A DNA stretch of 64,000 bases from a virus (IMGVR_UViG_3300032334_000488:1-64000); one strand, 5' to 3'. Shown: positions 22,957 through 40,312, counted from the stretch's first letter. A program made the numbers and translations. The notes: a model not told the origin generated them from the letters alone.

Positions 22957-22977
22957 TTCTTGCGATACACTGACGGT

Positions 22978-23418: not shown

Positions 23419-23617
23419 TAGCCTGAATAGTTGGACAGGGATACAAATCTTGGCAAGCCCAGCAAGTTTCATCAGGTAAAGCGTGAATGATTGGCTTATG
23501 TAATTCCACTACTGCACGAAGGGCATTGGTGTTTGCAAGTAATTTTTCAAATAAATGTTCGTGCTTCAAGCCGTTGGTTGAATCATCTATGTAGGCAATT
23601 AACTCATCGTGTGTCAT
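23399..23617 (-). CDS. hypothetical phage protein
   Basis: ALRAVVELHKP...C..C...YPCPT; SD AGGAG. Confidence 0.7.
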   Translation of the reverse strand: MTHDELIAYIDDSTNGLKHEHLFEKLLANTNALRAVVELHKPIIHALPDETCWACQDLYPCPTIQAIKKELS

Positions 23618-23653
23618 TATTACTCTCCTTTTGGTAGGGCTTTTGCTATTGCT

Positions 23654-24121
23654 TTAGCAATCGCACTCTTCTCCTGACTGCAGAATGCCTTCACCTTGGC
23701 ACTTATAACATGCTTCTGGTATGGCTTTGCAATCAGGCTCATGGTTTTTAATTATCTCGTTTACATACCCTGCCGTTGAAATCTTCTCTGCATCTGTTTG
23801 GTGAAGCCAATCCCAGATGTGCTGGTCTATTCTCAGATTGCATTGAGGACAGGGCAACACAATGTTCTTCTTCTCTTCACTGCCGCTAATGTAGGTGCTG
23901 ATTCTCCAGCCCAACTGAACTAACTTTCGCCAAAAGAGTCCTTCTACTTCAGTATCAGTAAGAGGCTTCTGTCTCCAAGGCTTATCGGTAAAGGGCAGTT
24001 CATCTTGAACCCACTGCTTGTCCTTTTGGTATGGCTTTGGAAACTGCTCTTGCTTCTGGTATGGCTTTGCTTTCTTTGGCTGGTCTGACTGCCAGTCGTG
24101 AATACTTCTGCCTTCCGCCAT
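23654..24121 (-). CDS. hypothetical zinc-finger protein
   Basis: CPQC, CYKC.G.G. Confidence 0.65.
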   Translation of the reverse strand: MAEGRSIHDWQSDQPKKAKPYQKQEQFPKPYQKDKQWVQDELPFTDKPWRQKPLTDTEVEGLFWRKLVQLGWRISTYISGSEEKKNIVLPCPQCNLRIDQHIWDWLHQTDAEKISTAGYVNEIIKNHEPDCKAIPEACYKCQGEGILQSGEECDC

Positions 24122-24178
24122 CTTGCTCCCCTAACTAACTAACTTCACCTGGCTGCCAGGTAGAGTTACTTCGAAGAT

Positions 24179-24202
24179 AGCCCCGCCATTTCTGACGGGG
24201 CT
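24179..24202 (-). terminator. stem-loop after recombinase/transglycosylase operon
   Basis: agccccgcca...tgacggggct. Confidence 0.55.
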
Positions 24203-24213
24203 TCTCCTATTGC

Positions 24214-24798
24214 TTATGCTGTTCTTCCTAGTGCTTTCGCTTTCGCTTTTGCTAGGGCTTTTGCATGTGCTTCAGGGAATTGCTTCAGCCACTTCTTAAC
24301 CACTGGGTTGCTGATGCCCTTCCATGATCTCCAGTCTTTGCCTTTTGCGCTCATGAAGTAAGCGATCTTGGCGTTCACCACAGGATTCAACAGTTGAGCG
24401 TTGTACTCTAAATTGAACTTTTCCCTGCGATCTTGTCCCAATGAGTTAATCATGTTGACTTGGAACAACCCAAATGAGTTATCCCCTGTCTTACGATTGC
24501 CGTTATGGGAGAGAGGGTTTCCATGTGATTCTTTCATAGCGATTGCCCACGCATAGCGTAAGGCTTTGCCTTGAAACCCAACTGCGTGCAACAGGTCAAC
24601 CAACTCAGTCTTAGTGAGGTGGTCGGCGTTATTGAACGGGGCTAGGGCTCGCTCTTGGTATTGCTTCTGCAAGACTTGCGCTTCGGCTCTTGAAGGTGAG
24701 AAGGCTGGTGGCATTACCACTAACCCACTACCAACAAACATCGCCGTAAATAGCGATCCGAATACGATCTTGCCTCTTCTTGTTAGATTCATCATCAC
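24214..24798 (-). CDS. membrane-anchored/secreted lytic transglycosylase (lysozyme-like)
   Basis: N-terminal hydrophobic helix; AIAMKES.GN, GLFQVN, NP..NA..A, W..W. Confidence 0.85.
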   Translation of the reverse strand: MMMNLTRRGKIVFGSLFTAMFVGSGLVVMPPAFSPSRAEAQVLQKQYQERALAPFNNADHLTKTELVDLLHAVGFQGKALRYAWAIAMKESHGNPLSHNGNRKTGDNSFGLFQVNMINSLGQDRREKFNLEYNAQLLNPVVNAKIAYFMSAKGKDWRSWKGISNPVVKKWLKQFPEAHAKALAKAKAKALGRTA

Positions 24799-26057
24799 TC
24801 CAAAAAGTCATTGACACTTTCTGATGCCTTTGACTGGTTGTGACGAAGGCGATGTAGGTATCGCTCTGTCGTCTTTATCGACTGATGCCCTAAGCGTTCC
24901 TTGACCTCATGCACATCTACCCCGCTTTTTAGAAGTTGGGTAGCGTTAGCGTGTCTGAGGTCATGGGTTCTAGGACTCCAGCCGATGCCTGACTTGGCTA
25001 TTGCCTTGTTCCATGTAGTTCTCCATACATCTCGTGGTAGGTGGCTCGTATGGTCGATGAACCTCTGTTGCTTTTGGTATGGCTTTGTCTTTTGCCTGTG
25101 CTTTCGCACCGACTCTCGACAAGCCTCGCATCGGCAACGCCCATGTGTATAGGCGTACAGAGTTCCATGCTGGAACAGTTTTCCGTCTTTGGCGAATGGT
25201 CGCCTAGACATTTCTCCACGAGAAGTCTCTAGTTTACCTGTTGTTAAGATGATCGTTCTTGGGAACAACAGGTCATCTTTTGATAGGGCTTTTGCTATGA
25301 CATAGCCCTGAATCTCTTGTAGTAGGGCTTTGCTTAACATAAGGCTTCGCTTATGACCCGACTTTGTGGCTTCTACGACTAGAAACCTACTGGTATGGCT
25401 TGCCCCTAGATCGCTGACTCGCCTTTGGACATAGACCTCGCCTGTCTTTAGGTTGATGTCTTTGACCCTGAGTTCTGTGGCTTCTCCGAATCGGCAACCT
25501 GATGCGACTAGGAATCGGGCGAATAACTGCGCCCCCTCAGTCGGTAGGTGCTGGATAATCGCCTTAAACTCTTCGGGCTCAACAACATTGGCGATGTCAG
25601 AATGCTTCGCCTTAATACGAATCCCATGTGTAGGGTTCTGAGTTAATTCTCCTGTATCGACTAACTGGGAGAGGGCAGACCCTAGCGATGCCTTGATCTG
25701 ATTGAGGGTGGCTGAACCTATCCCCTGACCCCTGAGGGCTTGAAGTAACTCTTGAATCGCCCGTCTATCGATCGAAGTTACTTTGCGATCTCCGAGGGCT
25801 GGCAGGACATAGCGATCAAGGACTGACCGATAGCCCTTGCGAGTGATCGGCATGAGATCGGCGGTCGGAAGCCATGAATCGATGTAGGTCGATAGGGTAA
25901 ATACAGCCCTAGAAGGCTCGCTAACGCCCGATACCTCTGCTTTTGAGGCGTGATACATAGCATCGATCTTCGTGTCCCATGTACCTGCTGAGAGGCGTTT
26001 TCCGCCCTTTCGGTAATAGCCTGTAAACCTATCCCCACGCTTTACGACATAAGCCAT
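24795..26057 (-). CDS. tyrosine recombinase/integrase with zinc-finger insertion
   Basis: GCRFGE, TKSG, HDLRH, LGH, TERY; inserted HGT...CRCEAC. Confidence 0.92.
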   Translation of the reverse strand: MAYVVKRGDRFTGYYRKGGKRLSAGTWDTKIDAMYHASKAEVSGVSEPSRAVFTLSTYIDSWLPTADLMPITRKGYRSVLDRYVLPALGDRKVTSIDRRAIQELLQALRGQGIGSATLNQIKASLGSALSQLVDTGELTQNPTHGIRIKAKHSDIANVVEPEEFKAIIQHLPTEGAQLFARFLVASGCRFGEATELRVKDINLKTGEVYVQRRVSDLGASHTSRFLVVEATKSGHKRSLMLSKALLQEIQGYVIAKALSKDDLLFPRTIILTTGKLETSRGEMSRRPFAKDGKLFQHGTLYAYTHGRCRCEACRESVRKHRQKTKPYQKQQRFIDHTSHLPRDVWRTTWNKAIAKSGIGWSPRTHDLRHANATQLLKSGVDVHEVKERLGHQSIKTTERYLHRLRHNQSKASESVNDFLE

Positions 26058-26071
26058 GATTCCCCCCTTCC

Positions 26072-26104
26072 ATGTTACTGGTGAGTAATGTTACTGGTGA
26101 GTAA
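26072..26104. repeat. tandem 16 bp repeat, each unit containing TTACT-GGTG-AGTAA
   Basis: atgttactggtgagta x2 just upstream of recombinase start. Confidence 0.85.
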
Positions 26105-26114
26105 CTTCGAATGC

Positions 26115-26150
26115 AAAAAATAGCCCCTAGCCCGATTAGGGGCTAGGGGC
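26115..26150 (-). terminator. intrinsic terminator of early operon
   Basis: gcccctagccc / gggctaggggc stem with A-run on + (U-tract on minus). Confidence 0.75.
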
Positions 26151-26232
26151 GATAGTGACTGTGGGCTTAGGGAATCTGCTTATGTGCGCTTGAAGTAACT
26201 TCTACCAGCCCCAGATCAGGGCTGAAAGTTAG

Positions 26233-26463
26233 TTAGGGATAAAGAATCTCTTCCCAATCCGAATCTTCAAGATCAAGTAACTCGGTAGGCAGAACCTTCC
26301 AGCGATCATCGATCGCAATAAAGTCCTCATTGATAAACCAATCAACATCAACGCCCCACTCACCAATAAATAATTTAGCGGTGTAGGTGTTTCCATTCAT
26401 TGGAAACTCAATCAAGTGTTCTGATGCGGTGTTTGCGCTACTAACAATTACATGAGCGACCAT
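26233..26463 (-). CDS. acidic hypothetical protein
   Basis: ORF track. Confidence 0.55.
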   Translation of the reverse strand: MVAHVIVSSANTASEHLIEFPMNGNTYTAKLFIGEWGVDVDWFINEDFIAIDDRWKVLPTELLDLEDSDWEEILYP

Positions 26464-26467
26464 TTAT

Positions 26468-26659
26468 TTATTTCTCCATTTCTATTTGTGTTGTTCGATA
26501 AGAGTTCCACTCATCGATTGTTTCTTGCTTCCATAGTGGTCGATTGCCGATCATGTGATCGGGGTCGGGAAGGGTGTTTCGCTTTCGATAGGTGTAGATC
26601 GTGTCGATCTTTAGCCCTGTTTGTTGCGCGATGTCGGTAGTAGTGAGCCAGTCCTTCAA
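26468..26659 (-). CDS. AlpA/excisionase-like HTH protein
   Basis: WLTTTDIA...TIYTY....LP.PD...G..PLW. Confidence 0.78.
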   Translation of the reverse strand: MKDWLTTTDIAQQTGLKIDTIYTYRKRNTLPDPDHMIGNRPLWKQETIDEWNSYRTTQIEMEK

Positions 26660-27141
26660 TTCGATGCACCAGTTTTCTGTTTAGTTTCATTAGGTTTTTT
26701 TCCAATCGTAAACATTTTGAAATCGCCAAGCATTCGATCGAACCATAAATAAGGAAGATCGTTTTCAACATTGAAGTTGTAGTAATCAGCATCTTTGCGA
26801 TTTAAGTTGCTCTGATGAGATTGATGAAATGACGAATCACCTAACCACACAGGCACTTCGCATTCAGGTAGTAACGAATGAACGGCAACGAATCGATCGA
26901 GCATGGTGTCTTTGTAACCACGATCAATCCACTCTTTGCAGATTGCGATTCCGTATTCACACAGAAGTCGTTCATGTCCACGCCACATCTTTGTAGCAGG
27001 GTGATTAGTCCAGCCCTTAGTCTCACCACGCAACGCTTGAAGTATTTGCCACGCCTCTACTCGTTGCTTGCCTAATCGTTTGTAATCGAGTGCTTTAGCA
27101 GTCTCTACGAAGTCAGGGAAAGGTAAGAATGTATTAACCAT
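26656..27141 (-). CDS. pyrimidine-dimer DNA glycosylase-like protein (DenV/MSMEG_6728-like)
   Basis: TFLP.PDF...A..LD.KRLGKQRVE, HPA..MW, H.SH.SNL.RKD. Confidence 0.85.
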   Translation of the reverse strand: MVNTFLPFPDFVETAKALDYKRLGKQRVEAWQILQALRGETKGWTNHPATKMWRGHERLLCEYGIAICKEWIDRGYKDTMLDRFVAVHSLLPECEVPVWLGDSSFHQSHQSNLNRKDADYYNFNVENDLPYLWFDRMLGDFKMFTIGKKPNETKQKTGASN

Positions 27142-27328
27142 TTGTAACCTCATCTAGTGTGTGCTTGATGAAATCATCGATTACTTCCCACATAGTGTCA
27201 TTGGTAGTAAGCCATTCTCTGATCTTTGCCCACTCATCGTCAGTAAGTACTCTCCCTACTAGTTGAGTTGCTTCTTCACGAGTAAATAGCACGATGTCAT
27301 TTGGATTAAGCATTAGTTGTCCCTTCAT
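27134..27328 (-). CDS. hypothetical early protein
   Basis: ORF track. Confidence 0.55.
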   Translation of the reverse strand: MKGQLMLNPNDIVLFTREEATQLVGRVLTDDEWAKIREWLTTNDTMWEVIDDFIKHTLDEVTNG

Positions 27329-27591
27329 AGTCCCAGTTTGATTTAACCCAGTTAAGTGCAGATAACCAATTAGTTAGATTTTCTTTGCCGAGATAAGGAA
27401 ACTCATTGGCTTTTAGTTCATGTTCGATGAACGCAATTTCGTAATTGATGTCCTCAATAGTTTTCATTACTGATCTCCATTCATGTCGTTATCGTGATCG
27501 ATGATGATTACCTCTATGTCACTAGGGCAACGAGTTACTTCTGCAACGCCACCATTGACCTCTATTACTACCTGATTTTTTGCATACATAA

Positions 27592-28008
27592 CTACAACGC
27601 CCTTTCTTGAATGTGTTGTGCATGAAGATCACACAAGATACTTCCTTTATCGTCACCTCTTGCATACCCTTCATACTTACAGATTTCGCAAGTGTGAACA
27701 GAACAACGATACTTTCCGTCAGTACCGATCTTTAATTCTTCGGGAGTATCCCAACCACAAAAATCGCACTCCAATCGTTTGCCGTCTAGTTTTTGATTCT
27801 CTAGCAAGCGTTCAAGTCGTGCAATCTTTCTTTCTAATTCAAGATTAGTAAGAGTAGTTCCATGTTCTTTGGGAGGTTTAATTCCTAACTTCTCACACTC
27901 TTCTACAAGTGTTTCTCGATACTCCTGTGCATAACGCAGAGATAGTCGTTGCTTTGCACGAGAGACTGCTTTGTTACGAAGTTTTTTATCTTGTTCGTTT
28001 AGTTCCAT
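27592..28008 (-). CDS. coiled-coil + zinc-finger protein
   Basis: CDFC, CSVH, CEIC, CDLH. Confidence 0.65.
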   Translation of the reverse strand: MELNEQDKKLRNKAVSRAKQRLSLRYAQEYRETLVEECEKLGIKPPKEHGTTLTNLELERKIARLERLLENQKLDGKRLECDFCGWDTPEELKIGTDGKYRCSVHTCEICKYEGYARGDDKGSILCDLHAQHIQERAL

Positions 28009-28283
28009 TAGTATTCTCCAATCACAGACACATACTGACGATACTTTCGATTCTCTCTACGGCGTAGCAACGCTCTCTCGTGATCTGTTAGACCACCGAA
28101 GATGCCGTACTGAACACCATTCTCTAGTGCGAATGTCAGACACTTATTCTTTGTGACCGCATCGCATTGACCACAGATTGATTTCGCTTCTCGAATCTTT
28201 TCATGCTCTGTTGGGTCAGGAAAAAAGATTTCAGGGTCGATACCTTTTGTCTGACATGGTGCATTGATAATCTCAATTTTCAT
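28008..28283 (-). CDS. whiB: WhiB-family transcription factor (second copy)
   Basis: C...DPEIFFP...AKSIC..C......CL...GIFGG. Confidence 0.9.
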   Translation of the reverse strand: MKIEIINAPCQTKGIDPEIFFPDPTEHEKIREAKSICGQCDAVTKNKCLTFALENGVQYGIFGGLTDHERALLRRRENRKYRQYVSVIGEY

Positions 28284-28614
28284 CTGTACTCCGATCTTTG
28301 TACTGCTCAGGATTTGCGATCACATAATTAACGAACGAGTCCATGACATTTGTTAAGTCCTCAGGTTCTAACTCTGCATACTTCAAAAGAATCTCGATCA
28401 TGTGCAGGAATCCCCAAATAAGCATTTCGGGTTCGATCTCTTTATCTTCCATAACAGAGTTCAAGTGTTCATTGGCTAGATACTCTTTTACCTCTTGCGG
28501 AAGGCTATCTTTGCGATCAGAATCTACTTTGAATCCACGAACGATCTTTAGAAACTCGTTAGCGATCGTGATCGATTTAATTAAATCAGTTTGGTGTGAT
28601 GATAGTTCAGCCAT
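28273..28614 (-). CDS. hypothetical early protein
   Basis: ORF track with SD. Confidence 0.6.
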   Translation of the reverse strand: MAELSSHQTDLIKSITIANEFLKIVRGFKVDSDRKDSLPQEVKEYLANEHLNSVMEDKEIEPEMLIWGFLHMIEILLKYAELEPEDLTNVMDSFVNYVIANPEQYKDRSTDEN

Positions 28615-28840
28615 TTAATTTCTCCTTTAATTGATTGAGGTGTTCCATGTCTTTTTCGTACCCTTTAATCATGTGACTTTCTACTTTACGAATGATCTCT
28701 CGTGACACTCCGTAACGACCTGCAACGCTTGCTAACGATTCACCATTTATTCGTGATGAAAGAATGTCGTAGAGTTCGCCTAAAGTAAATGGGTGTATTT
28801 TTGATTTGATTTTGTTGAAGTTTTTATTGTTTGAAAGCAT
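28607..28840 (-). CDS. sigma-70 region 4-like HTH protein
   Basis: SLASVAGRYGVSREIIRKVE. Confidence 0.6.
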   Translation of the reverse strand: MLSNNKNFNKIKSKIHPFTLGELYDILSSRINGESLASVAGRYGVSREIIRKVESHMIKGYEKDMEHLNQLKEKLNG

Positions 28841-28864
28841 TTGTAATCCTCTCTAGGTTATGGA

Positions 28865-28983
28865 ATCGAGTAGGGGCAGGTACGACTACGCCGTAACTAT
28901 CGAATGCGATCATGATCGCCCTTAGCAGGTAAGGAAGGGGAAATGATTAACCCCTATGAACCCTGCGTTGACCCCTACTCGAT
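28865..28983 (-). other. intergenic multibranch stem-loop
   Basis: 12 bp perfect closing stem atcgagtagggg/cccctactcgat with internal hairpins. Confidence 0.6.
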
Positions 28984-29157
28984 AAAGTTATTTTCTTATT
29001 ACTTTCTGAACACAGTTAAAGCAGAACCACAACACATTCTGACCGCTTGAATCAGTTATGTATTTACCTGATGAAGTAACTTCATCATTGTTGCAATCAT
29101 CGCAATTAGTTAGTTCGTGAGGTTGTACTTCACGAATGATCTGTGCGTATCCCATTG

Positions 29158-29343
29158 TTACACCTCTTCAATCTTCCCAGTTTGTTTGTACAACGCTTGT
29201 GCGAGTCTTGTTCCTTTTCTAACTCTTGGAGTTGCAGTTGACTTTACATCGCACCATACGAATCCCTCTTGGTGTCTAGTGATCTGACCAAGTATCTCGA
29301 ACCATTGTTCATCGACCTCAGCAGTTATTGTGTATTTAGCCAT
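29158..29343 (-). CDS. hypothetical early protein
   Basis: ORF track, SD GGAG. Confidence 0.55.
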   Translation of the reverse strand: MAKYTITAEVDEQWFEILGQITRHQEGFVWCDVKSTATPRVRKGTRLAQALYKQTGKIEEV

Positions 29344-29479
29344 GAGTTATCTCCCCTGCAAACAAGGTTCACAGATTAAGTATCCTTCTTTTGCATACAT
29401 TTCATTGACATCGTGCTGATCTCCACACTCGAAACAATCTCGAATGTGACGATACTTTTTGTCTAACAGTTTTGATTGT

Positions 29480-29713
29480 CTAAGAGTTATTGGCATCTAA
29501 ATCTCCTTCATCTAGCATTTTTGCATTCTGCCAAACAGTATCGTTGACATGACCCACACAGACATCGAGTGCATCATCACAGATGTTAATAGCATCGTCT
29601 GACAGTTCCTCGAAGTCTCTCGAATCCCACCAAGTAACTACGAGTGTCTCATCGAGTGCATTCCCATAGTTGCGTTGCAGAATCTCGATCGTCTCTTTTA
29701 CAGTTGCGATCAT
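29480..29713 (-). CDS. hypothetical early protein
   Basis: ORF track, SD AGGAG. Confidence 0.55.
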   Translation of the reverse strand: MIATVKETIEILQRNYGNALDETLVVTWWDSRDFEELSDDAINICDDALDVCVGHVNDTVWQNAKMLDEGDLDANNS

Positions 29714-29880
29714 TTATTTTCTCCTGTCACTTCATCGATCATCTTTGTACATGAGCCATAGCCCAACCAGTTGCCACCCTCGCCTACATAGCAGACATCA
29801 CGAGTTGCATAAGTAAATAACGACAACACAATAAGTGCAGGAATGATTACCAGCACAATCCAACCTCTACGAGTTAACAA

Positions 29881-30357
29881 TTAAGCATCTCCATTCTGTT
29901 TAGCCATTCGGTATTTCCATGAGTTACTAGCGATGTGAGTACGGATTCTGTGACACTTACCGCAACGAACATCGCACTTTGCGATTTCGTTTTCTAGTTT
30001 CTTGATTGTCATGCCAGTCAGCATGAATGCGTGAGCGATGTTGTAACGCTTCTTTGCGCCTCGTACATGGTCGAAGTCGAGTGCCAGTACATCTCTCTCG
30101 CCACAGTCAACGCATGGATTAGATTTCAAGTGATTGTAAATCCATTCCTTGATCTCTTTTCTTCGCTTCAAGTGCCACTCGACTTTGTAAGAATCTTCAC
30201 AAGGTATGCAGTATGAAGTAACTCCCGACTTAGTTTTTGCAGATCGAAACTCACTTAAGTACTTTAATGAGTCACACCGCTTGCACTCCTTGATTCCGAT
30301 AGCAAGAAAGTTTTCTCGCTCAATAGTCTTTGCAGACTTTCGGTTTCTAGTTGTCAC
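29881..30357 (-). CDS. HNH-like endonuclease
   Basis: CVDCG...DFDH...CDVRC..CHRIRT plus N-terminal CxxC pairs. Confidence 0.75.
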   Translation of the reverse strand: MTTRNRKSAKTIERENFLAIGIKECKRCDSLKYLSEFRSAKTKSGVTSYCIPCEDSYKVEWHLKRRKEIKEWIYNHLKSNPCVDCGERDVLALDFDHVRGAKKRYNIAHAFMLTGMTIKKLENEIAKCDVRCGKCHRIRTHIASNSWKYRMAKQNGDA

Positions 30358-31058
30358 GCAATCTCCTTCTTGTATAAGCGACTAAGTGGAAGTGTTTTGT
30401 ATTTCAGATCGTGATGATTAGAAGGTGTCACATAAGCGACAATAAATCGTGACCCAGTTGTGTCAACGATTACGCCTTTACGCAAGCGACCATGACCCTG
30501 AATGAATACCTGATCGTTGATTACGGCGTTGTATGGAACGAAGTCACTCATGTTTGATGCGTAAGTCATTCGCTCAGTAGAGATCGAGATTAGTTGATCT
30601 TGAATCGCAACGATCTTTGCTTCAAGATCGATTCGCTTCTTTGCGAGTTTGATTGTTTTCTCGATCTTGTCTGATGTGTGACTGCCACAGATAATTGCGT
30701 GTTCACTATTCCAGTTCAACGGCTTATCTGTGTGTTGTCCGTCAATACGCCAAGCCCATGCAAGAAAGATCGTATTGAATTGCAGATCACCACGAGATTT
30801 AATCTCTGATGCAGGTGCAGAATTAGGAAATGTGTTTCCGTTTACATCGAAGATGTCACACCACACATGATGAATGCCTTGCACAATGATTGAATGACCT
30901 TTGTACTCGATCTCTTGATAGGTATTAGGTAATTGCTTTAGTTCAATCACATGATCGAATCTCTTGTTACGCAACCATGTTGAGTAGTGCGTACTACCTT
31001 GATAGTTCTTGTAGTACTTATCTTGAATCTCTACGAATCGATCTAGGAAGTAACTCAT
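30354..31058 (-). CDS. hypothetical early protein
   Basis: 234 aa ORF, coupled. Confidence 0.65.
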   Translation of the reverse strand: MSYFLDRFVEIQDKYYKNYQGSTHYSTWLRNKRFDHVIELKQLPNTYQEIEYKGHSIIVQGIHHVWCDIFDVNGNTFPNSAPASEIKSRGDLQFNTIFLAWAWRIDGQHTDKPLNWNSEHAIICGSHTSDKIEKTIKLAKKRIDLEAKIVAIQDQLISISTERMTYASNMSDFVPYNAVINDQVFIQGHGRLRKGVIVDTTGSRFIVAYVTPSNHHDLKYKTLPLSRLYKKEIA

Positions 31059-31676
31059 TTATGCCACCATGTCCTGTGCTTCGAGAACCTTCTCGATTAG
31101 TGATTGAAGAGTGCGTACATCGATGTAGCAACCACCACTTAATTTGATTTCGCCATTCTCTTGACGGCGATTGCGAATCTCGAAATCAAGTTTGTCTGCA
31201 CGACTACCGATGATTGATCGAAGAGATTCTTTTACTGCATCAATAGATCGTTGAGCGTTTGCTTGTTCGATCTTCTCTAGTTGTTCCTTCGCTTCGCGCT
31301 CTGCCTTCCATTGAGCCTCACGAGCCTTCTCTTCGGCTTCTTCTTTAGTCCAGCGAGTTTCAAGAGTTGCGTAGTCAGCAACGATGTCCTGCGCTCTTGC
31401 AATCCAGTAGATGTCACCCTGTGTAGTTCCAGCCCAATCAGAAGATTTGACTAGATAACCGACTGAACGACTTCCCTTAGGTGCAGAAGTAAATTGTGCA
31501 TCAGAAGGATTATCTGATCGATACACCTTGTATTCGTATTTTTCTAGTGACACTAACTCTGCGTTAGCAACGGCTCTGCGTTGTACACGATCAGGATTCT
31601 TTTTATCTTGTGATGAATAATCCCATGAAGGAATAACGCCGTACTTAATACCAATTTGTAGTTCTGCTGATTTCAT
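31059..31676 (-). CDS. hypothetical early protein
   Basis: 205 aa ORF with SD AAGGAG. Confidence 0.7.
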   Translation of the reverse strand: MKSAELQIGIKYGVIPSWDYSSQDKKNPDRVQRRAVANAELVSLEKYEYKVYRSDNPSDAQFTSAPKGSRSVGYLVKSSDWAGTTQGDIYWIARAQDIVADYATLETRWTKEEAEEKAREAQWKAEREAKEQLEKIEQANAQRSIDAVKESLRSIIGSRADKLDFEIRNRRQENGEIKLSGGCYIDVRTLQSLIEKVLEAQDMVA

Positions 31677-31771
31677 TTATTAGTTTCTCCTTAGTTGTAA
31701 TTGTTTAAGTGGTGTGGTGCGCCAGCCTTCCACGAATAACGCACCACACCGAGTCACCTAGAGAGTGACAG

Positions 31772-33769
31772 TTAGTTGTTTACAAGACGGCGAGAGATCG
31801 CGTACTTCACGATTGATTTCGCCATGTAAACAAGATCGAATGGATTACGAATTACAGAAGCGATTTCGCAATAGTGCGATGTCTGATCTGTAAGAGGTTG
31901 CACCGCTTCTCCGTTTTCAGGAATGTAAGCGAATGCAGTAAGCACACCAGCACGAGCCATGCGCTTGATAGTTTCGTGATTAGCATCTTGATTGCCCGAC
32001 CATTCTCCGTCAGTAATTGCGAAGAAGATTCGTACAGGTTTCTCAGTTTCAGCAAGCAATTTAGTTGCGTACTTAATTGCTTGATCTGCTGATGTACCGC
32101 CACCAGTACCAGCATCACGAATCGTGTTACCGACACGATCAGTTGCACGATAGAGAGTGTTTGCATGATCGTTGAAAGTGATAACAGTTGTATTTGCACT
32201 AACGCGATCAAGTGCCTTCTTAATTGCGTACATGGCTTTGTATGCACTAGAGGCTTTGTGTCCTGACATTGAACCTGAGTTGTCTAACAAGATCACGCAT
32301 TCAATCTCAGTCGCATCTTCACGACCCTCATTCCATTGATCGAATACAGTATCGAGATCATCGCCACGTAAATAACGATGTGCAGATAAACGACCTTGTG
32401 ACTCGTACTTATCCCATGCAGGGTCGAACGATGCTCTCAATCGCTCTAACTCACGACCGAATGACAACGATGCTTGAAATGTATTTGCATCAGGTGCTAA
32501 GTCGTGAAAGCGATCTAGTTCAGGTTCTTTTGAGTTGTTAGTAGCAAGAGAAGGTAAGCCACCAATCTGTCGCAAGATGTCGTTGATTTCAGTTTCATTA
32601 GAATCAAGAATGTTTTCTAATAGATCACCAATCAATGTGTCGATCATTTCGCCAGCAGAATTACCAGCAGAATCAGAAGAAGAAGGCGAATCAAAATCTT
32701 GATCTGAATCCTGATCTGAATCTGTATCATCGAAATCGAAATCGATGTCGTTGATGTCAACATCGATAACAGGTTTTGATTTCAGTTGTTCAGCCAGTTG
32801 TGCATCATCTTCTTTGTCGAGTTGTTGTGATCGATCACGATCTTTTTCTTGCTTCTTTGGTGGAACAGGTCGTGAGTTTGCAGAGGATTCCAAGCCCTCT
32901 TGTGGTCGCTTGCCATGACCGAATGGGTCATTGATGCGAACGATTACATCGCCCTCTTCACCAGCCTGTGCAGGGCGCACAGAGCCATTCTCGCCACTAC
33001 CTGAACCATTACCTGAGCCATTACCTTTTGGAAGTAACTCGTTAAATCGCGCAATTAGTTCCTTTCCTTTTTCAGTATCAGCAGGGAATAGAAGAGTGCG
33101 GTATTCATCGACTACTGCACAGATTTCATCGATCTGATCTTGATGAGGATAGGCGTTACGAGATTGCGCTCTTAACTCCACAGGTAAGTATCTACGACCA
33201 CGCAATAGCGGATAAGAGTTAGTGAATGCCTCTTTGTTATCAACGAAGTGAATCAAGATTGTGGCAGTAAACCAATCAATCGTTGACGGATACTTTGAGG
33301 TAAAGAGAGTTTCGATTCTCTGATCTTCTAGTGCGTTGTATGCGGTGAAGTAATTGTTATCTCGTACATAATCGAAGAGTTCTGAACCCTCACGAGATGT
33401 GTAGAGAATGTGGCTGATCTCGTGAAGATCAAGCCCCTTGATACCAGCGATTGATTTAGCATCGTTGAGATCACCGATAGTGCGAGAGTTGAAAGTAACC
33501 GATGATGCACCTGACCAAGCAGGTGCTTCCATTGGTGAGTTCTCGACAGTCACAGTCACTTTGCGAAATGTGAATGCAGAATTAACACGACCGAAGAATT
33601 GTGTGAATCGTTCTAGTCGTTGCTTCTTCTCTTCTGCTTTCAACAGTTGTGATCGTAGTGACTCACGAGTCTCACCGAGAATGTCGAGTTCCCATTCTGC
33701 GACTGCATCGTTGTAATCCATTGTTACTCCATTTCGTTTACATGACGGACAATTACCACAAGCACACAT
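31772..33769 (-). CDS. VWA-domain protein with HExxH region (CobT-like MoxR partner)
   Basis: HEISH, NALED.RIE, acidic linker, MIDAS DNSGSM, GGGT, ITDG. Confidence 0.85.
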   Translation of the reverse strand: MCACGNCPSCKRNGVTMDYNDAVAEWELDILGETRESLRSQLLKAEEKKQRLERFTQFFGRVNSAFTFRKVTVTVENSPMEAPAWSGASSVTFNSRTIGDLNDAKSIAGIKGLDLHEISHILYTSREGSELFDYVRDNNYFTAYNALEDQRIETLFTSKYPSTIDWFTATILIHFVDNKEAFTNSYPLLRGRRYLPVELRAQSRNAYPHQDQIDEICAVVDEYRTLLFPADTEKGKELIARFNELLPKGNGSGNGSGSGENGSVRPAQAGEEGDVIVRINDPFGHGKRPQEGLESSANSRPVPPKKQEKDRDRSQQLDKEDDAQLAEQLKSKPVIDVDINDIDFDFDDTDSDQDSDQDFDSPSSSDSAGNSAGEMIDTLIGDLLENILDSNETEINDILRQIGGLPSLATNNSKEPELDRFHDLAPDANTFQASLSFGRELERLRASFDPAWDKYESQGRLSAHRYLRGDDLDTVFDQWNEGREDATEIECVILLDNSGSMSGHKASSAYKAMYAIKKALDRVSANTTVITFNDHANTLYRATDRVGNTIRDAGTGGGTSADQAIKYATKLLAETEKPVRIFFAITDGEWSGNQDANHETIKRMARAGVLTAFAYIPENGEAVQPLTDQTSHYCEIASVIRNPFDLVYMAKSIVKYAISRRLVNN

Positions 33770-33771
33770 TG

Positions 33772-34653
33772 TTAAGCCGTTGCGTGTTCTGTTGTGATCT
33801 TTTCAGCATCGAGTCCAAGTTCTTCTCGAATGTTGTATGAAGTACCTTCAAGAAGCATCTTGACTGCGGGGCGTTCTTCATCAGAGAAGTTGTTTATGAA
33901 TACATCGCAAGCGAAATCGAATGACAATCCTTTTGCAACCTTCTCGAATGTTTTCAAGATACGAGGTGATACAGGTGTCTCGAAGATAGTGCCACGATCT
34001 GATGCGTGATCGTCTCTGCGAGATGTTGATCGCATTCCGTTTGCGAGTTCCAAGAGTGAAGAGGATTTGATGATCTTCTTCTCAATCGTTGTGTCGTAAT
34101 CGAATCGCAATTTAATTTCGAAGCGATCTTTCCAAGCCTCGTTAAGTAACTGAGTACCTCGATAGTTTGGATTCTGATCTGCAACCACTAATAGATCAGG
34201 GTGTGCGTTGATTACTTCGTTGTCATGTGACATGAGAGTAATTGAACGGCGATCATCGAGAAGGCTCATTAAGTACTGTGAGAGGTTCTTAGGGGCGTTG
34301 TTGAGTTCGTTGATAAGTAGCAAGCCACCCTCACGAACGATCTTTGTAATTGCGCCGTCAACCCACTTTAGTTTGCCGTCAGCATCAGGGAACAAACCAC
34401 CAATTAATTGTGTGAAGTCGATTGCAGAGTTACATGGAACAGCGAAGAAGTTCATGTGTCGCTTTGATGCGTAAGCAAGTGCCGATGTTGTCTTGCCAGT
34501 TCCAGCATCGCCTTCGATTAAGATGTTCATGTTGTGAGCAAGTGCGAAGTCGTACATGGCATCTTCTGTAACGCCACCAGTAAAGGTGCGTGGAATGTAG
34601 TGCGATGTCTTTTCTAGCGTTGGAATAAATAGTGATTTGTTTTCTGTAGTCAT
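33772..34653 (-). CDS. MoxR/CbbQ-type AAA+ ATPase
   Basis: GDAGTGKT, WVDG, LLINE, NPNY.GT..LN.A..DRF, SPR. Confidence 0.88.
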   Translation of the reverse strand: MTTENKSLFIPTLEKTSHYIPRTFTGGVTEDAMYDFALAHNMNILIEGDAGTGKTTSALAYASKRHMNFFAVPCNSAIDFTQLIGGLFPDADGKLKWVDGAITKIVREGGLLLINELNNAPKNLSQYLMSLLDDRRSITLMSHDNEVINAHPDLLVVADQNPNYRGTQLLNEAWKDRFEIKLRFDYDTTIEKKIIKSSSLLELANGMRSTSRRDDHASDRGTIFETPVSPRILKTFEKVAKGLSFDFACDVFINNFSDEERPAVKMLLEGTSYNIREELGLDAEKITTEHATA

Positions 34654-34677
34654 GTTGTTTTCCGTTTCTCTAGGTGT

Positions 34678-34944
34678 TTAGTTTGTTTGGTAGTCGGTTG
34701 TTACTGCATCAGGGTTTTTAACGATGATCTTTGATGCGAGGTACAGATCATCGAGTTGTGTAGTTAGTTCCTGAAACTCGTTGAAGATGTTGCACTCTTC
34801 TTCAATACGAGATTCGATCTTTGGTAGTACAGATTGAAGCACCGCAACGATCTGTGGTGGTGCGCCATTTTCAAGTGCGTTGTCGAGTGCCACCTCAACC
34901 ATTGTGTGAAGTAATCCGAGTTCATCGAGATTGAATTGACTCAT
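34678..34944 (-). CDS. hypothetical early protein
   Basis: ORF track. Confidence 0.55.
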   Translation of the reverse strand: MSQFNLDELGLLHTMVEVALDNALENGAPPQIVAVLQSVLPKIESRIEEECNIFNEFQELTTQLDDLYLASKIIVKNPDAVTTDYQTN

Positions 34945-35039
34945 TAGATACCTCGATTCGATTGCGATAGTTCGTGGAATAAGTTTTCGATCAGTACACC
35001 AACAACGCCAGCGATTACTGCAAGAATGAAAATAACCAT

Positions 35040-35327
35040 TTAGTCCTCATCTCTATCTATCCAAGCATTTAGGAATAGTCCGTCAACGGCGTTGATCGCA
35101 GTTACAGTTGTTGAATTACGAAATTGCACACCAGCAGGTAGTTCAATTTCGAGATCGTATTGCTCATTGTTAACCGCCTTGATTGCTTCCTTAGCAACGG
35201 CGATCATAAAGTCAGGAATCGGTGGATAGCAGTTATTACCGAAATGAATTGCTAATTGTTGTTCGAGATCAATAACAAACTCACCGCTTGCTAGATCGTT
35301 TGCGAAAGTAGAACCCATGTTATGCAA
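35040..35327 (-). CDS. hypothetical early protein
   Basis: ORF track; HF..NCYPP. Confidence 0.6.
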   Translation of the reverse strand: MHNMGSTFANDLASGEFVIDLEQQLAIHFGNNCYPPIPDFMIAVAKEAIKAVNNEQYDLEIELPAGVQFRNSTTVTAINAVDGLFLNAWIDRDED

Positions 35328-35613
35328 CCGCCTTTCTTACATAGTTTTGATGTTTTGATGTTGTAGTTGAGTATTTGCAGTTAGGCATAAACCAACCGCT
35401 ATTAGAATGCCAAGCGATTGGTGTTGAGTATGAGTACACAATAAAGTCAGGTCGATCTAACTCCAGTTGATCTCGAAACTCTTGTGGAAGTCTGCCGAAA
35501 TCGTAAGCGTATTCATTTGGCGCAATAACAACGCCGTAGAGATTGTTACCTGTGAATGCAACGCGATCAACGATTAGATCGCCAGCCTTTGTGTTTGATG
35601 TTCTAGTTGTCAT
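35320..35613 (-). CDS. phage early protein
   Basis: VYSYSTPIA...YSTTTSKHQ; SD GGAG. Confidence 0.7.
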   Translation of the reverse strand: MTTRTSNTKAGDLIVDRVAFTGNNLYGVVIAPNEYAYDFGRLPQEFRDQLELDRPDFIVYSYSTPIAWHSNSGWFMPNCKYSTTTSKHQNYVRKAVA

Positions 35614-35726
35614 TTAGTTTCTCCGTTACATAGTCGGCAGATAAGAGCAGGTTTGTCGTTTAGTTTTACGAACCATAGATCGGTTGAAGGTTTAGCGCAG
35701 ATAGCGCAGTCAAGAATGATTGACAT

Positions 35727-35900
35727 TTATTTCGCCACTTTTACAATGTCGAGTTGTTTGATGAAGTCGAGTGTGTAGTTATCTGATTTAGTTGAGTAGA
35801 AGCGAGTTCCGTCATTTAGTAGTAGATCGATAGCGATCTCTGTAATACGACCACGAGCAACGATGTTGCCCTTTGCATCTATGAATGTTTGTTGTTTCAT
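35727..35900 (-). CDS. small early protein (57 aa, not in ORF track)
   Basis: MKQQTFIDAKGNIVARGRITE...; coupled to upstream stop. Confidence 0.55.
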   Translation of the reverse strand: MKQQTFIDAKGNIVARGRITEIAIDLLLNDGTRFYSTKSDNYTLDFIKQLDIVKVAK

Positions 35901-36142
35901 TAGTTGTTGTCCAATCCTGTAGTCAAAGCCTTTTGCAGTTCTGCATTAAATACTCGTGTTGTAGGTGCTTCTCCATAAGGAGTGAAGTTTGTTGAGAGAT
36001 TGACACGAACGAATCCGTCTCTATAAAACTTGATTCGTTTTTTAGAACTTAGAAAACCTTCGTATGAATAAAGATACTTTCCTGTGTTGGTGTCATAGAA
36101 ATCCCAAACACCTGTTGTTCCAATTACTGTTTTGGTTGTCAT
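35900..36142 (-). CDS. first gene of leftward early operon, hypothetical
   Basis: ORF track. Confidence 0.6.
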   Translation of the reverse strand: MTTKTVIGTTGVWDFYDTNTGKYLYSYEGFLSSKKRIKFYRDGFVRVNLSTNFTPYGEAPTTRVFNAELQKALTTGLDNN

Positions 36143-36159
36143 TTTTTATTCCGTTTCCT

Positions 36160-36780
36160 TTTGTAGTTACTAGTGGAATTGAATACATCGAGTTATGTAT
36201 TCATAGCGATCGATCACCAAGATAGTTCGCTGACTATTTATGGTGATCGATCACTATTAACACATAAGCAGAAGTGCTGATCGTTGTTGTTGTAACTAGT
36301 TTCAATGTGCAATCGGTTGGATTGATTACCACCTGCACTCACTAGTAGAGACATTCCGTCACTAGTTACATGACGATCTCCACACTTCAATTTCCCTAAG
36401 CCCTACTGCTATTCACAATCAGTTTCTTGATCGTTAATCCGCGCCCTTGAAATACCGCTTGAATGTATTTACTAATTACATTCGCATCGCCGTAGCAAGC
36501 ATGATCGAATCGATTATTTATTTCGGTGTTATTGCATCGTATAGTCCGACCGCACACTTTCTGCCTTAGTAACTGATTACTAGTTGTAATCAATACCGAA
36601 TAAATAAATCGCAGTTTCTTAGTCACTATAAAAAATAAATAAATAAATTGATCGTCACCTAAGTACTGTCCCTAAGGAAATCTTTCGCAGGTTAGTTCAC
36701 CGATGTTTATTTATTATTTAATTATTGTTAAAGCCTGTTACCAGTTTTAACGATTCGCTTTTTTCACTTTGAATGATTCA
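36160..36780. other. AT-rich non-coding element with several long inverted repeats
   Basis: Hairpins 36193-36267, 36291-36370, 36511-36611, 36636-36715. Confidence 0.65.
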
Positions 36781-37128
36781 CCAATTTGCCCCTAGAGGAT
36801 TCTGAAATCGGTGGTCACACATCGAGTGCGCTACTAGGAGAATTGAACCACATCTGTACGACAAATTGGGACAGGCTGATAAGAGGGGTTTTTGGTGTCA
36901 CGCTCAAAAAATCCCACCCCACAGAATGGGCGCAGAAGAACGATCGCCCCATGAATAGGGTTCTTATTCCAGTATTGGGGGTAAAGCCCTGAGAGAGCCT
37001 ATAGAAGCCGTATAAGGGCTATTGAGCGTGAGGCTGATAGGGGCAGTTTGAGCGTGGGGTGTTGCGTGGGTCACACCTGCCGAAGTAACTGCCAAGATCG
37101 CTAGTTCCGCCAAGTAAGTCCGAGCAAA

Positions 37129-37150
37129 TAGTTGAAAGTTCAATTACATT
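37129..37150 (+). promoter_or_regulatory. palindromic operator-like site overlapping leaderless -10 (TACATT)
   Basis: TAGTTGAA-AG-TTCAATTA; -10 six nt before ATG 37157. Confidence 0.4.
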
Positions 37151-37156
37151 ACTCCG

Positions 37157-37534
37157 ATGCGAGAATGCCGAGAGTGCAGAGTTGAGAAGCCGTTAGATCG
37201 TTACGAGTTAACAGGTCATGGCTATCACCGAAAGATTTGCATGAGTTGCAGATCGTCACGAAAGCGAATAAAGAGATTGCCACGACAATTTGGAATCAGT
37301 TACCAAGAATTGTTAGTGATGAAAGAAGAACAAGATTACAAGTGTGCGATCTGTGGAATACATGAAGAGAACACAACAAAAAAGTTAGCGGTAGATCACG
37401 ATCACAAAACTAATCGAGTGCGTGGGTATCTGTGCAATAACTGCAACAGGGGAATTGGTTTATTGAAAGATGATGTAGAAGTGATGAAGAGAGCGATTGT
37501 TTATTTAGAGCGCAATTTATCGAATGATGTTTAG
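37157..37534 (+). CDS. endonuclease VII-family HNH nuclease
   Basis: Q..KCAIC...LAVDHDH...VRGYLC..CN.GIG. Confidence 0.88.
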   Translation: MRECRECRVEKPLDRYELTGHGYHRKICMSCRSSRKRIKRLPRQFGISYQELLVMKEEQDYKCAICGIHEENTTKKLAVDHDHKTNRVRGYLCNNCNRGIGLLKDDVEVMKRAIVYLERNLSNDV

Positions 37535-37570
37535 CCTGTATTCGGGGGTAATCGGGGGTATAAATAACCT

Positions 37571-38020
37571 ATGAAAATCTGCATAGTTTGTGAGAAAGAG
37601 TTGCCTCTTAGTAAGTTCGAGATGAACGGAAACACCCGAAGGAATCAATGCGTATCTTGTAGGTTTCAACAAAAAAAGAATCGCCCTTCTTATGATTCCG
37701 TAATAAAGCCTAAAATCAAGAATTATCGATTGAAGCAATACGGAATAACTATTGAGGATTACAACGAGATGTTAAGTAAACAGAACGGCGTGTGCGCTAT
37801 CTGTAAAACTAATCCGTATCCTGATAAAAAGTTCTGTGTAGATCACGATCACAATACAGGCGTAGTTCGTGGGTTGTTGTGCGATTTATGCAATAGAGGT
37901 ATCGGGTTGATGCGTGATGATGTCGTAATCCTAGCGTCTGCTATTGATTATTTAACGCCCCTCTTTTCTCAGAAGGAAGGGGTCACAGGGGAAACCTCGT
38001 TTCCCCTGATAAAAGAATAA
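37571..38020 (+). CDS. endonuclease VII-family HNH nuclease
   Basis: YGIT..Y...Q.GVCAIC...VDHDH.TG.VRGLLC..CN.GIG. Confidence 0.9.
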   Translation: MKICIVCEKELPLSKFEMNGNTRRNQCVSCRFQQKKNRPSYDSVIKPKIKNYRLKQYGITIEDYNEMLSKQNGVCAICKTNPYPDKKFCVDHDHNTGVVRGLLCDLCNRGIGLMRDDVVILASAIDYLTPLFSQKEGVTGETSFPLIKE

Positions 38021-38103
38021 GTTGTTTATGACCAAAGTATTTAAGAGAGAATAGAGAGATAGATACATTGATTGGTTACTAGATTGCTTGCTGGTATTAA
38101 GTG

Positions 38104-38389
38104 TTGGTACAACCTGATAATAGAGATCACTATCTGATTCACATAGCAACAGGTAACTAACTATGTGATGAAAAGGTACATTTGAAATAGTTAGTTAACT
38201 ACCTGATAACAAGTGGCTGAGATGACTGACAGGCTGGTGGTATGCACACAGGCAATCTGTTTCAGAATGCAGTAGCCGAAGCGATCACGATGTCATGTCA
38301 CCAAAATTGTCACCAAACTATTGGTACAACCTGATAACAAAGCGTGTGTTAACAACATCGCACCTGATTAGTAGTCAGGTGATGATGTG
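38104..38389. repeat. non-coding direct/inverted repeats with ACCTGAT(A/T)A core
   Basis: ttggtacaacctgataa at 38104 and 38321; acctgataacaa at 38201; tgtcaccaaa x2; cacctga...tcaggtg hairpin. Confidence 0.75.
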
Positions 38390-38914
38390 AACATTGTAAA
38401 AAATAAATTGACCCCCCCACCATTAACGCAAACACACACGATGAGCGGCCAGGTCGGAGCCATGATTGAGGGGTTTAGGCTGAGGCAGTAGCCAAAATGA
38501 GCAATAATCGGCCACATGAGCGAAATTCAGCCCCTATCTATGGCTTCTGAGCCTTGTTGCAGCACAAATTGCCCTTGTAAAGAGGAAAATGATGACAAAT
38601 AGTCAAAATTTGTCGGCATCACAGTTTGGCAACACGGTAAGTGTGGCCAAGGCGTGAATATCGCCTTCATCATCGTTGCAATTGTCGTTGTTGGAGTTGC
38701 ATTGTGGGCATCAGAGCAGTAATCTAGTTCTACGACTGGTAGGCGAGCACGACTTAACTTCCAAAAGTGTAGGGGACTGTCGTGAGTCCACCTACGGCCA
38801 GTTGTCAGCCAAATCCCTGCACTGCTAAATGCAGGGCTTTGTGCTGTAAAGAGCCCCCTAAAATTTTTTCTCAGTAACAACTCAAGGCAGTAGCCTTAAT
38901 GCAACAATACTCAC

Positions 38915-39289
38915 ATGAGCAAGAGTGAATTCAACCAAGGTCATAGCCCAATGTGCCCAGAGTTAGGGTGCAGCAAGCCAGCAGATAGCCACATCCACCT
39001 CAGTCGTGAGGATGTCGACTCTATGCGTGGTATGGCACAGGCAGGCAAGATGGCTGCCGAGGTCGACACTCACATGAGAACTGCTCCAACAGACACCCGT
39101 GACCATGCCGCATTGAAGGCACACATGCTCTCTTCTGGCCATTACGCCCATCCGATGGATGTGCACGAGATGACTCACGAGACATTGAAGGCCTATCACG
39201 ATGAAGATCACGCCAATATGGATGCAGGTCCAGCAGATGAGCGTGAGAATTACACAAACTTCGGCCACGAGCATATGCATAACGCATGA
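38915..39289 (+). CDS. His-rich hypothetical protein
   Basis: ORF track; begins MSKSEF. Confidence 0.65.
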   Translation: MSKSEFNQGHSPMCPELGCSKPADSHIHLSREDVDSMRGMAQAGKMAAEVDTHMRTAPTDTRDHAALKAHMLSSGHYAHPMDVHEMTHETLKAYHDEDHANMDAGPADERENYTNFGHEHMHNA

Positions 39290-39663
39290 AGAATCCAAAG
39301 CCACATACCACGCTAGTATCTGGTTCTCAGTTCCAGGGCTTCCTTACATCATCAGCAGCGGGTGTGAACACGCCATCACGCACAGGTGAGGGTACAGAGC
39401 CTCGCCCAGGTATGAGCAAGCGTGATCACCGCAACATTATCGCCACAGAGTTAAACAACCATCCAAAGAAGATCGGCATGAGTATGTTTGTTGCAGGACT
39501 CACTCACATGGGTGTACAGCCTAACGAGGCTAACCTAGGTCACATCTCTGGATTAGTCAGAGGTGACAATGACAAATTTCATGAATTAGTCGGCCTTGCA
39601 AGAAAGACAGCAATCGGTGCAAAGCAGCGCAAGGTAGAGAAGAATCGTGGTATTCAAAAATGA
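39286..39663 (+). CDS. hypothetical protein with LVSGSQF tag variant
   Basis: ORF track, ATGA coupling. Confidence 0.65.
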   Translation: MKNPKPHTTLVSGSQFQGFLTSSAAGVNTPSRTGEGTEPRPGMSKRDHRNIIATELNNHPKKIGMSMFVAGLTHMGVQPNEANLGHISGLVRGDNDKFHELVGLARKTAIGAKQRKVEKNRGIQK

Positions 39664-40154: not shown

Positions 40155-40312
40155 AGTGCAAGCACATCTACGAGGTAGTCGGGGCCGTCTTCTGCCCACA
40201 TTGCGGTTCTAGCACTCACGAAGTGGACTGGGCCGATGTCAATGAACAGCATCGCGCCTGGAAAGAATTTATCATTGATAATCCACAAGAGTTAACTTGG
40301 TGGAGCATATGA
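40151..40312 (+). CDS. small zinc-finger protein (53 aa)
   Basis: MKCKH...CPHCG; ATGA overlaps at both ends. Confidence 0.6.
   Translation: MKCKHIYEVVGAVFCPHCGSSTHEVDWADVNEQHRAWKEFIIDNPQELTWWSI

Follow-up and report, generated by a model that had tools for sequence, protein, structure and literature searches.

The window analysed here, positions 1-64000 of IMGVR_UViG_3300032334_000488, covers the opening 64 kb of one virus record of 87,211 bp (G000), which IMG/VR classes as linear and for which CheckV estimates a completeness of 87%. Within it lies a zone of 14,288 nucleotides (nt), 24157..38444, or 16% of the record, from which a large set of short, restriction-type words is missing; several of the counts given below were taken over 24161-38446. 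The zone comprises the entire minus-strand gene block, a leftward early and integrase arm, together with the non-coding control region upstream of it, and the gene map bears out the initial annotation, which had matched the zone to minus-strand early genes and their upstream non-coding DNA. Outside the zone, plus-strand genes at 2-23 kb encode a SNF2 helicase, RecA, a family A DNA polymerase and a ribonucleotide reductase of class II, and those at 54-61 kb encode the portal, the capsid protein and the large terminase (TerL). No Rfam family of structured RNA and no tRNA was detected in the 64-kb window. The sequence data are assembled contigs throughout, and depths are contig means. DNA of G000 is nearly complete in one metagenome run (X1, the probable source), and diverged copies occur in freshwater and lake metagenomes, with short contigs carrying diverged copies of the zone in runs X2, X3 and X5.

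Read in its own direction, the arm begins at a largely untranslated, repeat-rich control region of 1.8 kb (36627..38444; repeats such as ACAACCTGATAA, present three times) and continues with five small open reading frames (ORFs), two of which encode promoter-proximal, very acidic proteins of 88 and 95 amino acids (aa) with an isoelectric point of 4.1 (34678..35327). The conserved core pair of the arm follows (31772..34653), consisting of a MoxR-type AAA ATPase (33772-34653; PF07728, 1.7e-19) and a von Willebrand A (VWA)/CobT-like protein (31772-33769; PF13519, 1.1e-9). Beyond it are an HNH endonuclease (29881..30357; phrog_2255, 1.6e-30), a WhiB-type transcription factor (28008..28283; PF02467, 3.1e-17; phrog_472) and a DenV-like pyrimidine-dimer DNA glycosylase (26656..27153; PF03013, 2.7e-22). 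The later part of the arm holds a small helix-turn-helix, excisionase-like protein (26468..26659; HTH_17 at 1.1e-4, below the Pfam cut-off; phrog_597, 5.4e-16; phrog_66, 2.6e-7), a strong intrinsic terminator with an 11-pair stem and T run upstream of the integrase gene (26123..26150, from a terminator scan), a tyrosine integrase of 420 aa (24795..26057; PF00589, 2e-25; PF14659; phrog_1, 5.8e-53) and, as the last gene, a lytic transglycosylase-like protein with an N-terminal membrane or signal segment (24214..24798; PF18896 SLT_3, 1.4e-17). Directly after this gene a GC-rich hairpin (24181..24205), read from the sequence and not flagged by the terminator scan, sits between the leftward arm and the convergent, rightward ribonucleotide reductase block. 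All of these genes, the terminator and the hairpin are on the minus strand. The Pfam and/or PHROGs scans took in 23 of the 25 zone ORFs, leaving out 27134-27328 and 29158-29343 as well as the doubtful 36396-36626 and 36786-36992.

The control region is itself interrupted by two tandem endonuclease VII genes on the plus strand (37157-37534 and 37571-38020; PF02945, 4.7e-24 and 3.4e-25). Contigs from X2 and X3 skip from 37514 to 38055, so the second of these genes is missing in some relatives. Both genes comply with the word bans of the zone.

Actinobacteria are indicated as the host group by the WhiB gene and by the actinophage-like relatives found for TerL, for the integrase and for the VWA protein; among freshwater Actinobacteria, phages of Nanopelagicales have been isolated. 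The best named relatives of TerL are those of Streptomyces phage BRock (52.5%) and Bacillus phage BCD7 (39.4%). Nucleotide searches of a phage collection, made for the host question, returned no match. An attB or integrated copy was not found; the search of genome contigs with TerL gave only three hits, in metagenome bins of three different phyla, and these were not used to assign a host. The phage looks temperate, given its integrase, its excisionase-like gene and a probable attP at the zone edge, described below.

The absence of words from the zone is categorical for those originally reported and extends well beyond them. GGCC, CCWGG and GGWCC occur 62, 95 and 36 times in the window and not once inside 24161-38446, the widest gaps running from 19719 to 38447 for GGCC, from 24156 to 38449 for CCWGG and from 23104 to 39227 for GGWCC. 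GGCC resumes at 38447, 38510, 38645 and 38796; the initial annotation, otherwise accurate on these counts and positions, had placed the third of these one base too low, at 38644. ATAT is likewise absent (Markov expectation 32), ACGT occurs once (expectation 35.9), and the only GCNGC starts at 38445, on the edge itself, within the final two bases. CTGCAG, RGCGCY, GRCGYC, GAATTC, TGATCA, AGATCT and CAATTG each have no copy in the zone, and the non-palindromic words CCATC/GATGG, GGATC, GGATG, CACGG, ACCGT, CGACG and CCAGA have none or one apiece. In a scan of palindromic words of four, five and six letters with an expectation of at least 3, 39 of 87 are without any copy in the zone. Windows of the same size elsewhere in the record lack 7-13 words, mostly those containing AGCT or CCGG, and the 87,211-bp record holds only one such zone.

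Coding constraint does not reproduce this pattern. In 300 synonymous-codon shuffles of the 25 zone ORFs, GGCC has a mean of 17.2 and a minimum of 6 (observed, 0), ACGT a mean of 34.7 and a minimum of 24 (observed, 1), and ATAT a mean of 40.5 and a minimum of 28 (observed, 0); CCWGG and GCNGC, both observed at 0, average 8.2 and 10.1. Codons were also redrawn from the usage of genes outside the zone. Because neither the shuffles nor the redraws approach the observed zeros, codon use is not the cause of the purge, and the codon bias that the initial annotation had named among possible refutations does not account for it.

Other words are denser inside the zone than outside. GATC occurs 343 times in the window, of which 140 are inside the zone (9.8 per kb in the zone vs 4.1 outside), and TCGA 242 times, of which 116 are inside (8.1 vs 2.5 per kb); CGATCG has 8 of its 13 window copies inside, and CGCG 7 of 8. 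The enrichments that had been proposed for these words fare unequally under a second codon shuffle (n=500). That of GATC holds, with 117 copies in zone ORFs against 85.2 +/- 6.4 expected and none of 500 shuffles as high, whereas that of TCGA is marginal (8 of 500 as high) and that of CGATCG is not significant (146 of 500). CGCG is concentrated in the zone as claimed, yet its 7 copies are still under the expectation of 28-36, and the word is nearly absent record-wide.

There are thus two levels of avoidance. AGCT and CCGG are absent from the whole 87-kb record, where about 290 and 66 copies are expected, and these genome-wide bans are separate from some 30 further words that are banned in the zone only. 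Outside the zone, the zone-banned words are mildly depleted over the replication module at 1-24000 (observed/expected 0.60-0.89) and stand close to expectation over 39000-72000 (0.79-1.08).

The breadth of the word set bears directly on a suggestion of the initial annotation, that the zone is kept free of a motif of the phage's own DNA modification. Under this explanation, the zone would avoid the targets of the phage's modification or nuclease and so stay unmodified or uncut, and the presence of four HNH/endonuclease VII genes in the arm and control region would fit it. The purge, however, involves about 30 independent words, both palindromic and non-palindromic, and the set shifts between close lineages. 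A single modification system is unlikely as the cause because one system cannot read that many motifs. In G000, 87% complete, no methyltransferase of the C5, N4/N6 or Dam type and no member of the thymidylate-synthase-like or TGT families was found, the search being confined to these modification families, and three complete relatives (G001, G002 and G004; 94.7-97.4 kb) contain no C5 or N4/N6 methyltransferase. Avoidance of the phage's own motifs is accordingly regarded as improbable.

The same test was applied to relatives, as the initial annotation had proposed, and the zone is present in all those examined. With the zone VWA protein as query, 18 viral-contig loci (L001-L018; 52-92% identity) were recovered, and 18 of 18 contain, in syntenic position, a stretch of 10-13.7 kb that has no copy of CCWGG, GGWCC or GCNGC. 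The stretch is flanked by the end of the ribonucleotide reductase block on one side and by a conserved non-coding element on the other. The three complete relatives have exactly one zone apiece, in which 16, 36 and 31 of about 70 words are absent by a fixed 11.5-kb zone measure. The other banned words vary by lineage, some loci keeping ATAT, or GGCC and ACGT, inside the zone. G001 retains GGCC and ACGT in its zone, and in the zone of G002 the ban extends to GTAC and TGCA, both of which are abundant in the zone of the window. Some loci are without GATC across the zone and its flanks, two of which contain CCGG, and GATC is absent from all of the ~97 kb of G002 and of G004. A separate stretch of 3.5-4.5 kb in G001, from ~93.6 kb to 3.5 kb over the record ends in re-oriented coordinates, is without GATC, TCGA and GGCC, words frequent in that genome.

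Divergence among these lineages provides a measure of how the purge is maintained. The window differs from L001, L002, L004 and L013 by 659-1125 substitutions per 5.9-8 kb of aligned zone block, and random placement of the same number and kind of changes creates 51-82 forbidden sites in simulation (minimum 32), where none is observed in these four relatives at 11-14% divergence. A fifth relative in the same test has 13 forbidden sites, all due to its lineage not banning ATAT. Since no sites are observed against the 51-82 expected under neutrality, the purge is upheld by continuing selection, lineage by lineage. The data thus show purifying selection that is still acting against restriction-type words and is confined to one region, whose edges are sharp and conserved.

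Such maintenance is difficult to reconcile with recent acquisition. The initial annotation had raised acquisition from another lineage as an alternative, and in a broader form this explanation holds the zone to be a module from a phage of another host, or an artefact of composition, codon use or assembly. The GC content of the zone (0.429 vs 0.456 outside), its opposite coding strand and the mosaicism common in phages would all fit. The purge is kept, however, at 11-17% nucleotide divergence, where neutral change would make dozens of sites, and it is therefore not the fading trace of a foreign insert. Arm and backbone share the bans that apply genome-wide (on AGCT and CCGG, in some lineages also on GATC), so that the word sets of the zone follow the bans of the backbone itself; the codon-aware nulls miss the zeros, and independent assemblies share the junctions. 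This explanation is already contradicted by the data and is hardly tenable.

The left edge of the zone falls at a perfect palindrome, ACCTGGC-T-GCCAGGT (24146..24160), that holds the first CCWGG and GCNGC sites. The same palindrome occupies the same place in L001, L002, L004 and L013, with a near-palindrome in L008, and it is a probable recombinase core site. On both sides of it, seven copies of a ~20-nt motif (TGCTTCTGGTATGGCTTTGC-like; repeat family D3) lie in the same orientation on the plus strand, at 23626, 23711, 24021, 24051, 25069, 25314 and 25385 (23626..25404), inside three genes. These are candidate arm-type binding sites of the integrase, and the palindrome and polar repeats together look like an attP core with its arm sites. 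The hairpin next to the left edge is kept in L002, L008, L012 and L013.

The right edge lies within a conserved non-coding element of ~330 nt on the plus strand (38190..38520; alignment of 14 sequences), which is conserved in all lineages. The element consists, in order, of a tandem GTCACCAAA, an invariant hairpin with a 7-bp stem (38361-38381), CCCCCCACCATTAA, the 10-mer GC(N)GCCAGGT that holds the first sites (38445), and AGGCAGTAGCC. In 31 of 35 viral contigs with the hairpin, the first outside site lies 76-87 nt past the start of the hairpin pattern. On the zone side, 30 of 36 viral contigs are site-free to the contig end and 2 more for ~12 kb; 13 of these 36 are identical with contigs of the VWA-recovered set, and some metagenome contigs duplicate viral ones. 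Of the metagenome loci, 33 reach at least 1 kb into the zone; 24 of them are site-free over that side, 2 have one site and 7 have many, the last group being read as chance pattern matches as they are without the flanking conserved blocks. The 19-nt hairpin pattern also matches the unrelated metagenome contigs L080, L086 and L088, beside sequence resembling the T-arm of tRNA or tmRNA, probably by chance given the size of the collection; mimicry of a tRNA by the hairpin is a less likely alternative. The AGGCAGTAGCC motif recurs at 38267, 38483 and 38885, twice ~30 nt ahead of an ATG (38515 and 38915), and may be a phage promoter for leaderless messages. To the right of the zone, five consecutive small ORFs at 40506-42264, out of 16 listed for 38915-50057, share the motif [NST]-L-[SN]-x-x-Q-F close to the N-terminus, inside residues 1-25.

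The 10-mer GC(N)GCCAGGT has only two copies in the 87-kb record, at 24152 and 38445, one per zone edge and in the same orientation, and L008 is alike. This arrangement suggests another explanation, in which the zone is an independently travelling cassette, bounded by recombinase sites and excised or exchanged between phages, and thus restricted without the protection of the phage. An integrase gene at one end is as expected of such a cassette, and divergence is much greater in the arm than in the terminase, the VWA protein being 52-65% identical where TerL is 89% identical. However, the 10-mer is found at both edges in only 2 of 19 loci (the record and L001-L018), and the match follows in part from the definition of the edges. 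Wherever a locus extends past both ends of the arm, the arm is flanked by the same neighbours, namely ribonucleotide reductase and, opposite it, the conserved element, and it is never seen in another context. A mobile cassette is thus very improbable.

At roughly an even chance stands the reading that the zone is the part of the genome exposed to host restriction enzymes before, or apart from, the rest, in the manner of the first-step DNA of phage T5 or of the leading region of T7-like phages. The initial annotation had likewise proposed first-entering DNA, a reading supported here by analogy. The cause of the purge would be the order of exposure, and the arm would encode counter-defence. As a single cut at any position is lethal to the phage, the loss of sites over 16% of the genome is of use only where the other 84% is safe in a different way. 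In the proposed sequence of events, an arm of 12-14 kb would enter and be read first, delivering the control region, the small early genes, MoxR/VWA, WhiB, the excisionase-like protein, integrase and transglycosylase. Its products would then disarm or outlast most type II enzymes of the host, and the remaining ~80 kb, at risk only later, would be able to keep its sites. The genome-wide bans (AGCT and CCGG, or GATC in other lineages) would represent the words of enzymes that the phage cannot neutralise, with the ~30 further words banned in the arm alone. Entry is mildly favoured to begin at the right edge, with the control region and promoters first; in mycobacteriophage L5-type phages, leftward early arms are read from the right genome end. 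A little short of an even chance is allowed for the wider proposal, that in an entire family of freshwater actinophages, temperate and with genomes of ~95 kb, the DNA is delivered or exposed as two compartments, namely an early arm of 12-14 kb, with an integrase site and a conserved non-coding element as its borders and free of up to 40-50% of short palindromes, and a backbone that keeps them.

The physical ends of the genome are central to this reading. X1 contigs span both zone edges without difference (22599-26568, and 33808 to past 41000), and contig depth is 11.9 and 10.8 inside the zone, 11.2 outside and 11.6 on edge-bridging contigs. The direct terminal repeats that IMG/VR assigns to G001, G002 and G004 are overlaps of 123-127 nt that look like assembly closure and are uninformative on the ends. 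Circular closure of these relatives fits cohesive ends or short repeats, and equally fits headful packaging with permuted ends. With regard to the packaging type suggested by TerL, the start of the BRock record carries no repeat annotation, and a literature search gave no lead. In 48 whole metagenome contigs with the hairpin, zone-side contig ends lie 75, 101, 106, 108, 116, 126 and 127 nt away, among others, and outside ends 3, 5 and 94 nt, among others; this excess just inside the zone is uninformative on physical ends because repeats and strain variation there fit it. Many contigs that cover the rightward genes (36 viral and 48 metagenome contigs) stop 0.1-2.3 kb into the zone, a pattern suggestive of pronounced variation between strains, or of repeats, in the promoter-proximal part of the arm.

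Several observations weigh against staged exposure. A T5-like long terminal repeat collapsed in assembly is ruled out by the flat depth, where a doubling is expected. G001, G002 and G004 close as circles through overlaps of 123-127 nt at unrelated positions, and headful packaging with permuted ends, if used, would leave no fixed first-entering DNA. No single-base pile-up of contig ends occurs near the conserved element among the 48 metagenome contigs, and TerL has no real similarity to the T5 terminase. The left edge lies at the probable attP core rather than at the strongest terminator of the arm, 2 kb inside (26123-26150), a placement that the entry model does not predict, and past this edge the depletion of zone-banned words is graded in the window genome (0.60-0.73 vs 0.8-1.08) and in G001, with none in G002 or G004. 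No anti-restriction gene was identified in the arm by the Pfam and/or PHROGs scans; the charge of the two acidic proteins marks them as candidate DNA-mimic or anti-restriction proteins, for which there is neither a family match nor a usable Atlas lead. Finally, the T7-type RNA polymerase family (PF00940) was not found in G000, G001, G002 or G004, in none of which the search control matched either.

In a rival explanation, the whole genome would enter at once but would for a time be mostly shielded, by co-injected proteins or by compaction for example, such that only the arm is naked for host RNA polymerase, integrase and regulators, and hence cut. Shielding directly predicts a zone made of one strand block and its control region, needs no fixed genome ends and is compatible with circular assemblies; genes for small enzymes with a common N-terminal motif also lie directly to the right of the zone. 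Against this, no shielding protein was identified, and the right edge, which falls inside the conserved element and upstream of the first promoter-like motif in the rightward direction, does not coincide with the end of a transcript. Past the strong terminator, moreover, the genes for integrase and transglycosylase are still purged. Shielding with a boundary at one fixed base has no known precedent, and this explanation is considered unlikely, though it keeps a small share of the probability.

Should exposure order prove to be the cause, the purge would offer a computational route to the leading, anti-defence-rich DNA of uncultured phages. The arm-only bans would serve as a readout of the restriction repertoire of the host population, unculturable hosts included, and the genome-wide bans would denote the enzymes that phage counter-defence cannot beat. 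The arm would also become a shortlist for new anti-restriction genes, beginning with the small acidic proteins and the MoxR/VWA pair, and staged or selective exposure of DNA would extend beyond the small number of model phages that first revealed it.

The closest known parallel is found in T5 and BF23, which are reported to be open to restriction-modification systems only at sites within the first-step (FST) region (PMC10644984; bioRxiv 10.1101/866236). As described there, first-step DNA is a contiguous block, ~10% of the genome in T5, with early genes mostly of unknown function, and the present zone resembles it in these respects. Further likenesses to the T5 segment are genes that leave a central promoter region holding an HNH/homing-type endonuclease gene, a long, conserved and repeat-rich untranslated border (here 36627-38444 and 38190-38520, a likeness of layout), and ORFs that vary much faster than the untranslated region. 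As in T5, sites are tolerated outside the segment and not inside, here as a sequence signature only. Unlike T5, the zone is not in a long terminal repeat, as the flat depth indicates, the terminase is unrelated, and no homologue of A1, A2 or dmp is present among the 23 of 25 zone ORFs scanned with Pfam and/or PHROGs. The phage described here is also apparently temperate, with an actinobacterial host indicated and a probable recombinase site bounding the zone, and the same word scan finds 39 of 87 words absent here, compared with 4 of 65 for the first-step region of T5.

A second parallel is Murciavirus, a T7-like member of the Autographiviridae challenged by the type I system Mme2I. Its sensitivity to restriction is set by motifs within the early region that is injected first and is highly variable, motifs elsewhere doing no harm, which the authors of that report term selection on a sub-genomic scale (PMC12455610). 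There, one type I motif was established by experiment, whereas the present case involves ~30 type II-like words read from sequence alone, in a genome of ~95 kb as against ~40 kb in the Autographiviridae. A T7-type leading segment would run from a genome end with host promoters to the early terminator; the arm ends at the hairpin 24181-24205, and a stronger terminator lies 2 kb inside. Given the outcome for the terminal repeat and for A1 and A2, the phage is not a member of the T5 or T7-type family, though it would work alike in the proposed reading.

The leading regions of conjugative plasmids carry anti-defence genes and are depleted in targets, as cited in the Murciavirus report (PMC12455610). 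They share with the zone, as read here, first-entering DNA with counter-defence under special restriction pressure, but theirs is single-stranded by conjugation and that of the phage double-stranded. Whole-genome avoidance of sites is evident in the same genome, where AGCT and CCGG number 0 in 87 kb, and in relatives with no GATC in ~97 kb; what differs here is a second tier confined to 15-16% of the genome. Among the papers listed by the literature searches, supplements excluded, none described a multi-motif, kb-scale purge in a phage. Region-limited effects of restriction sites are known from experimental work with T5- and T7-like phages, where they concern single sites and are hardly visible in sequence, and what appears as new is the extreme, multi-word signature, present family-wide and with edges exact to within tens of bases.

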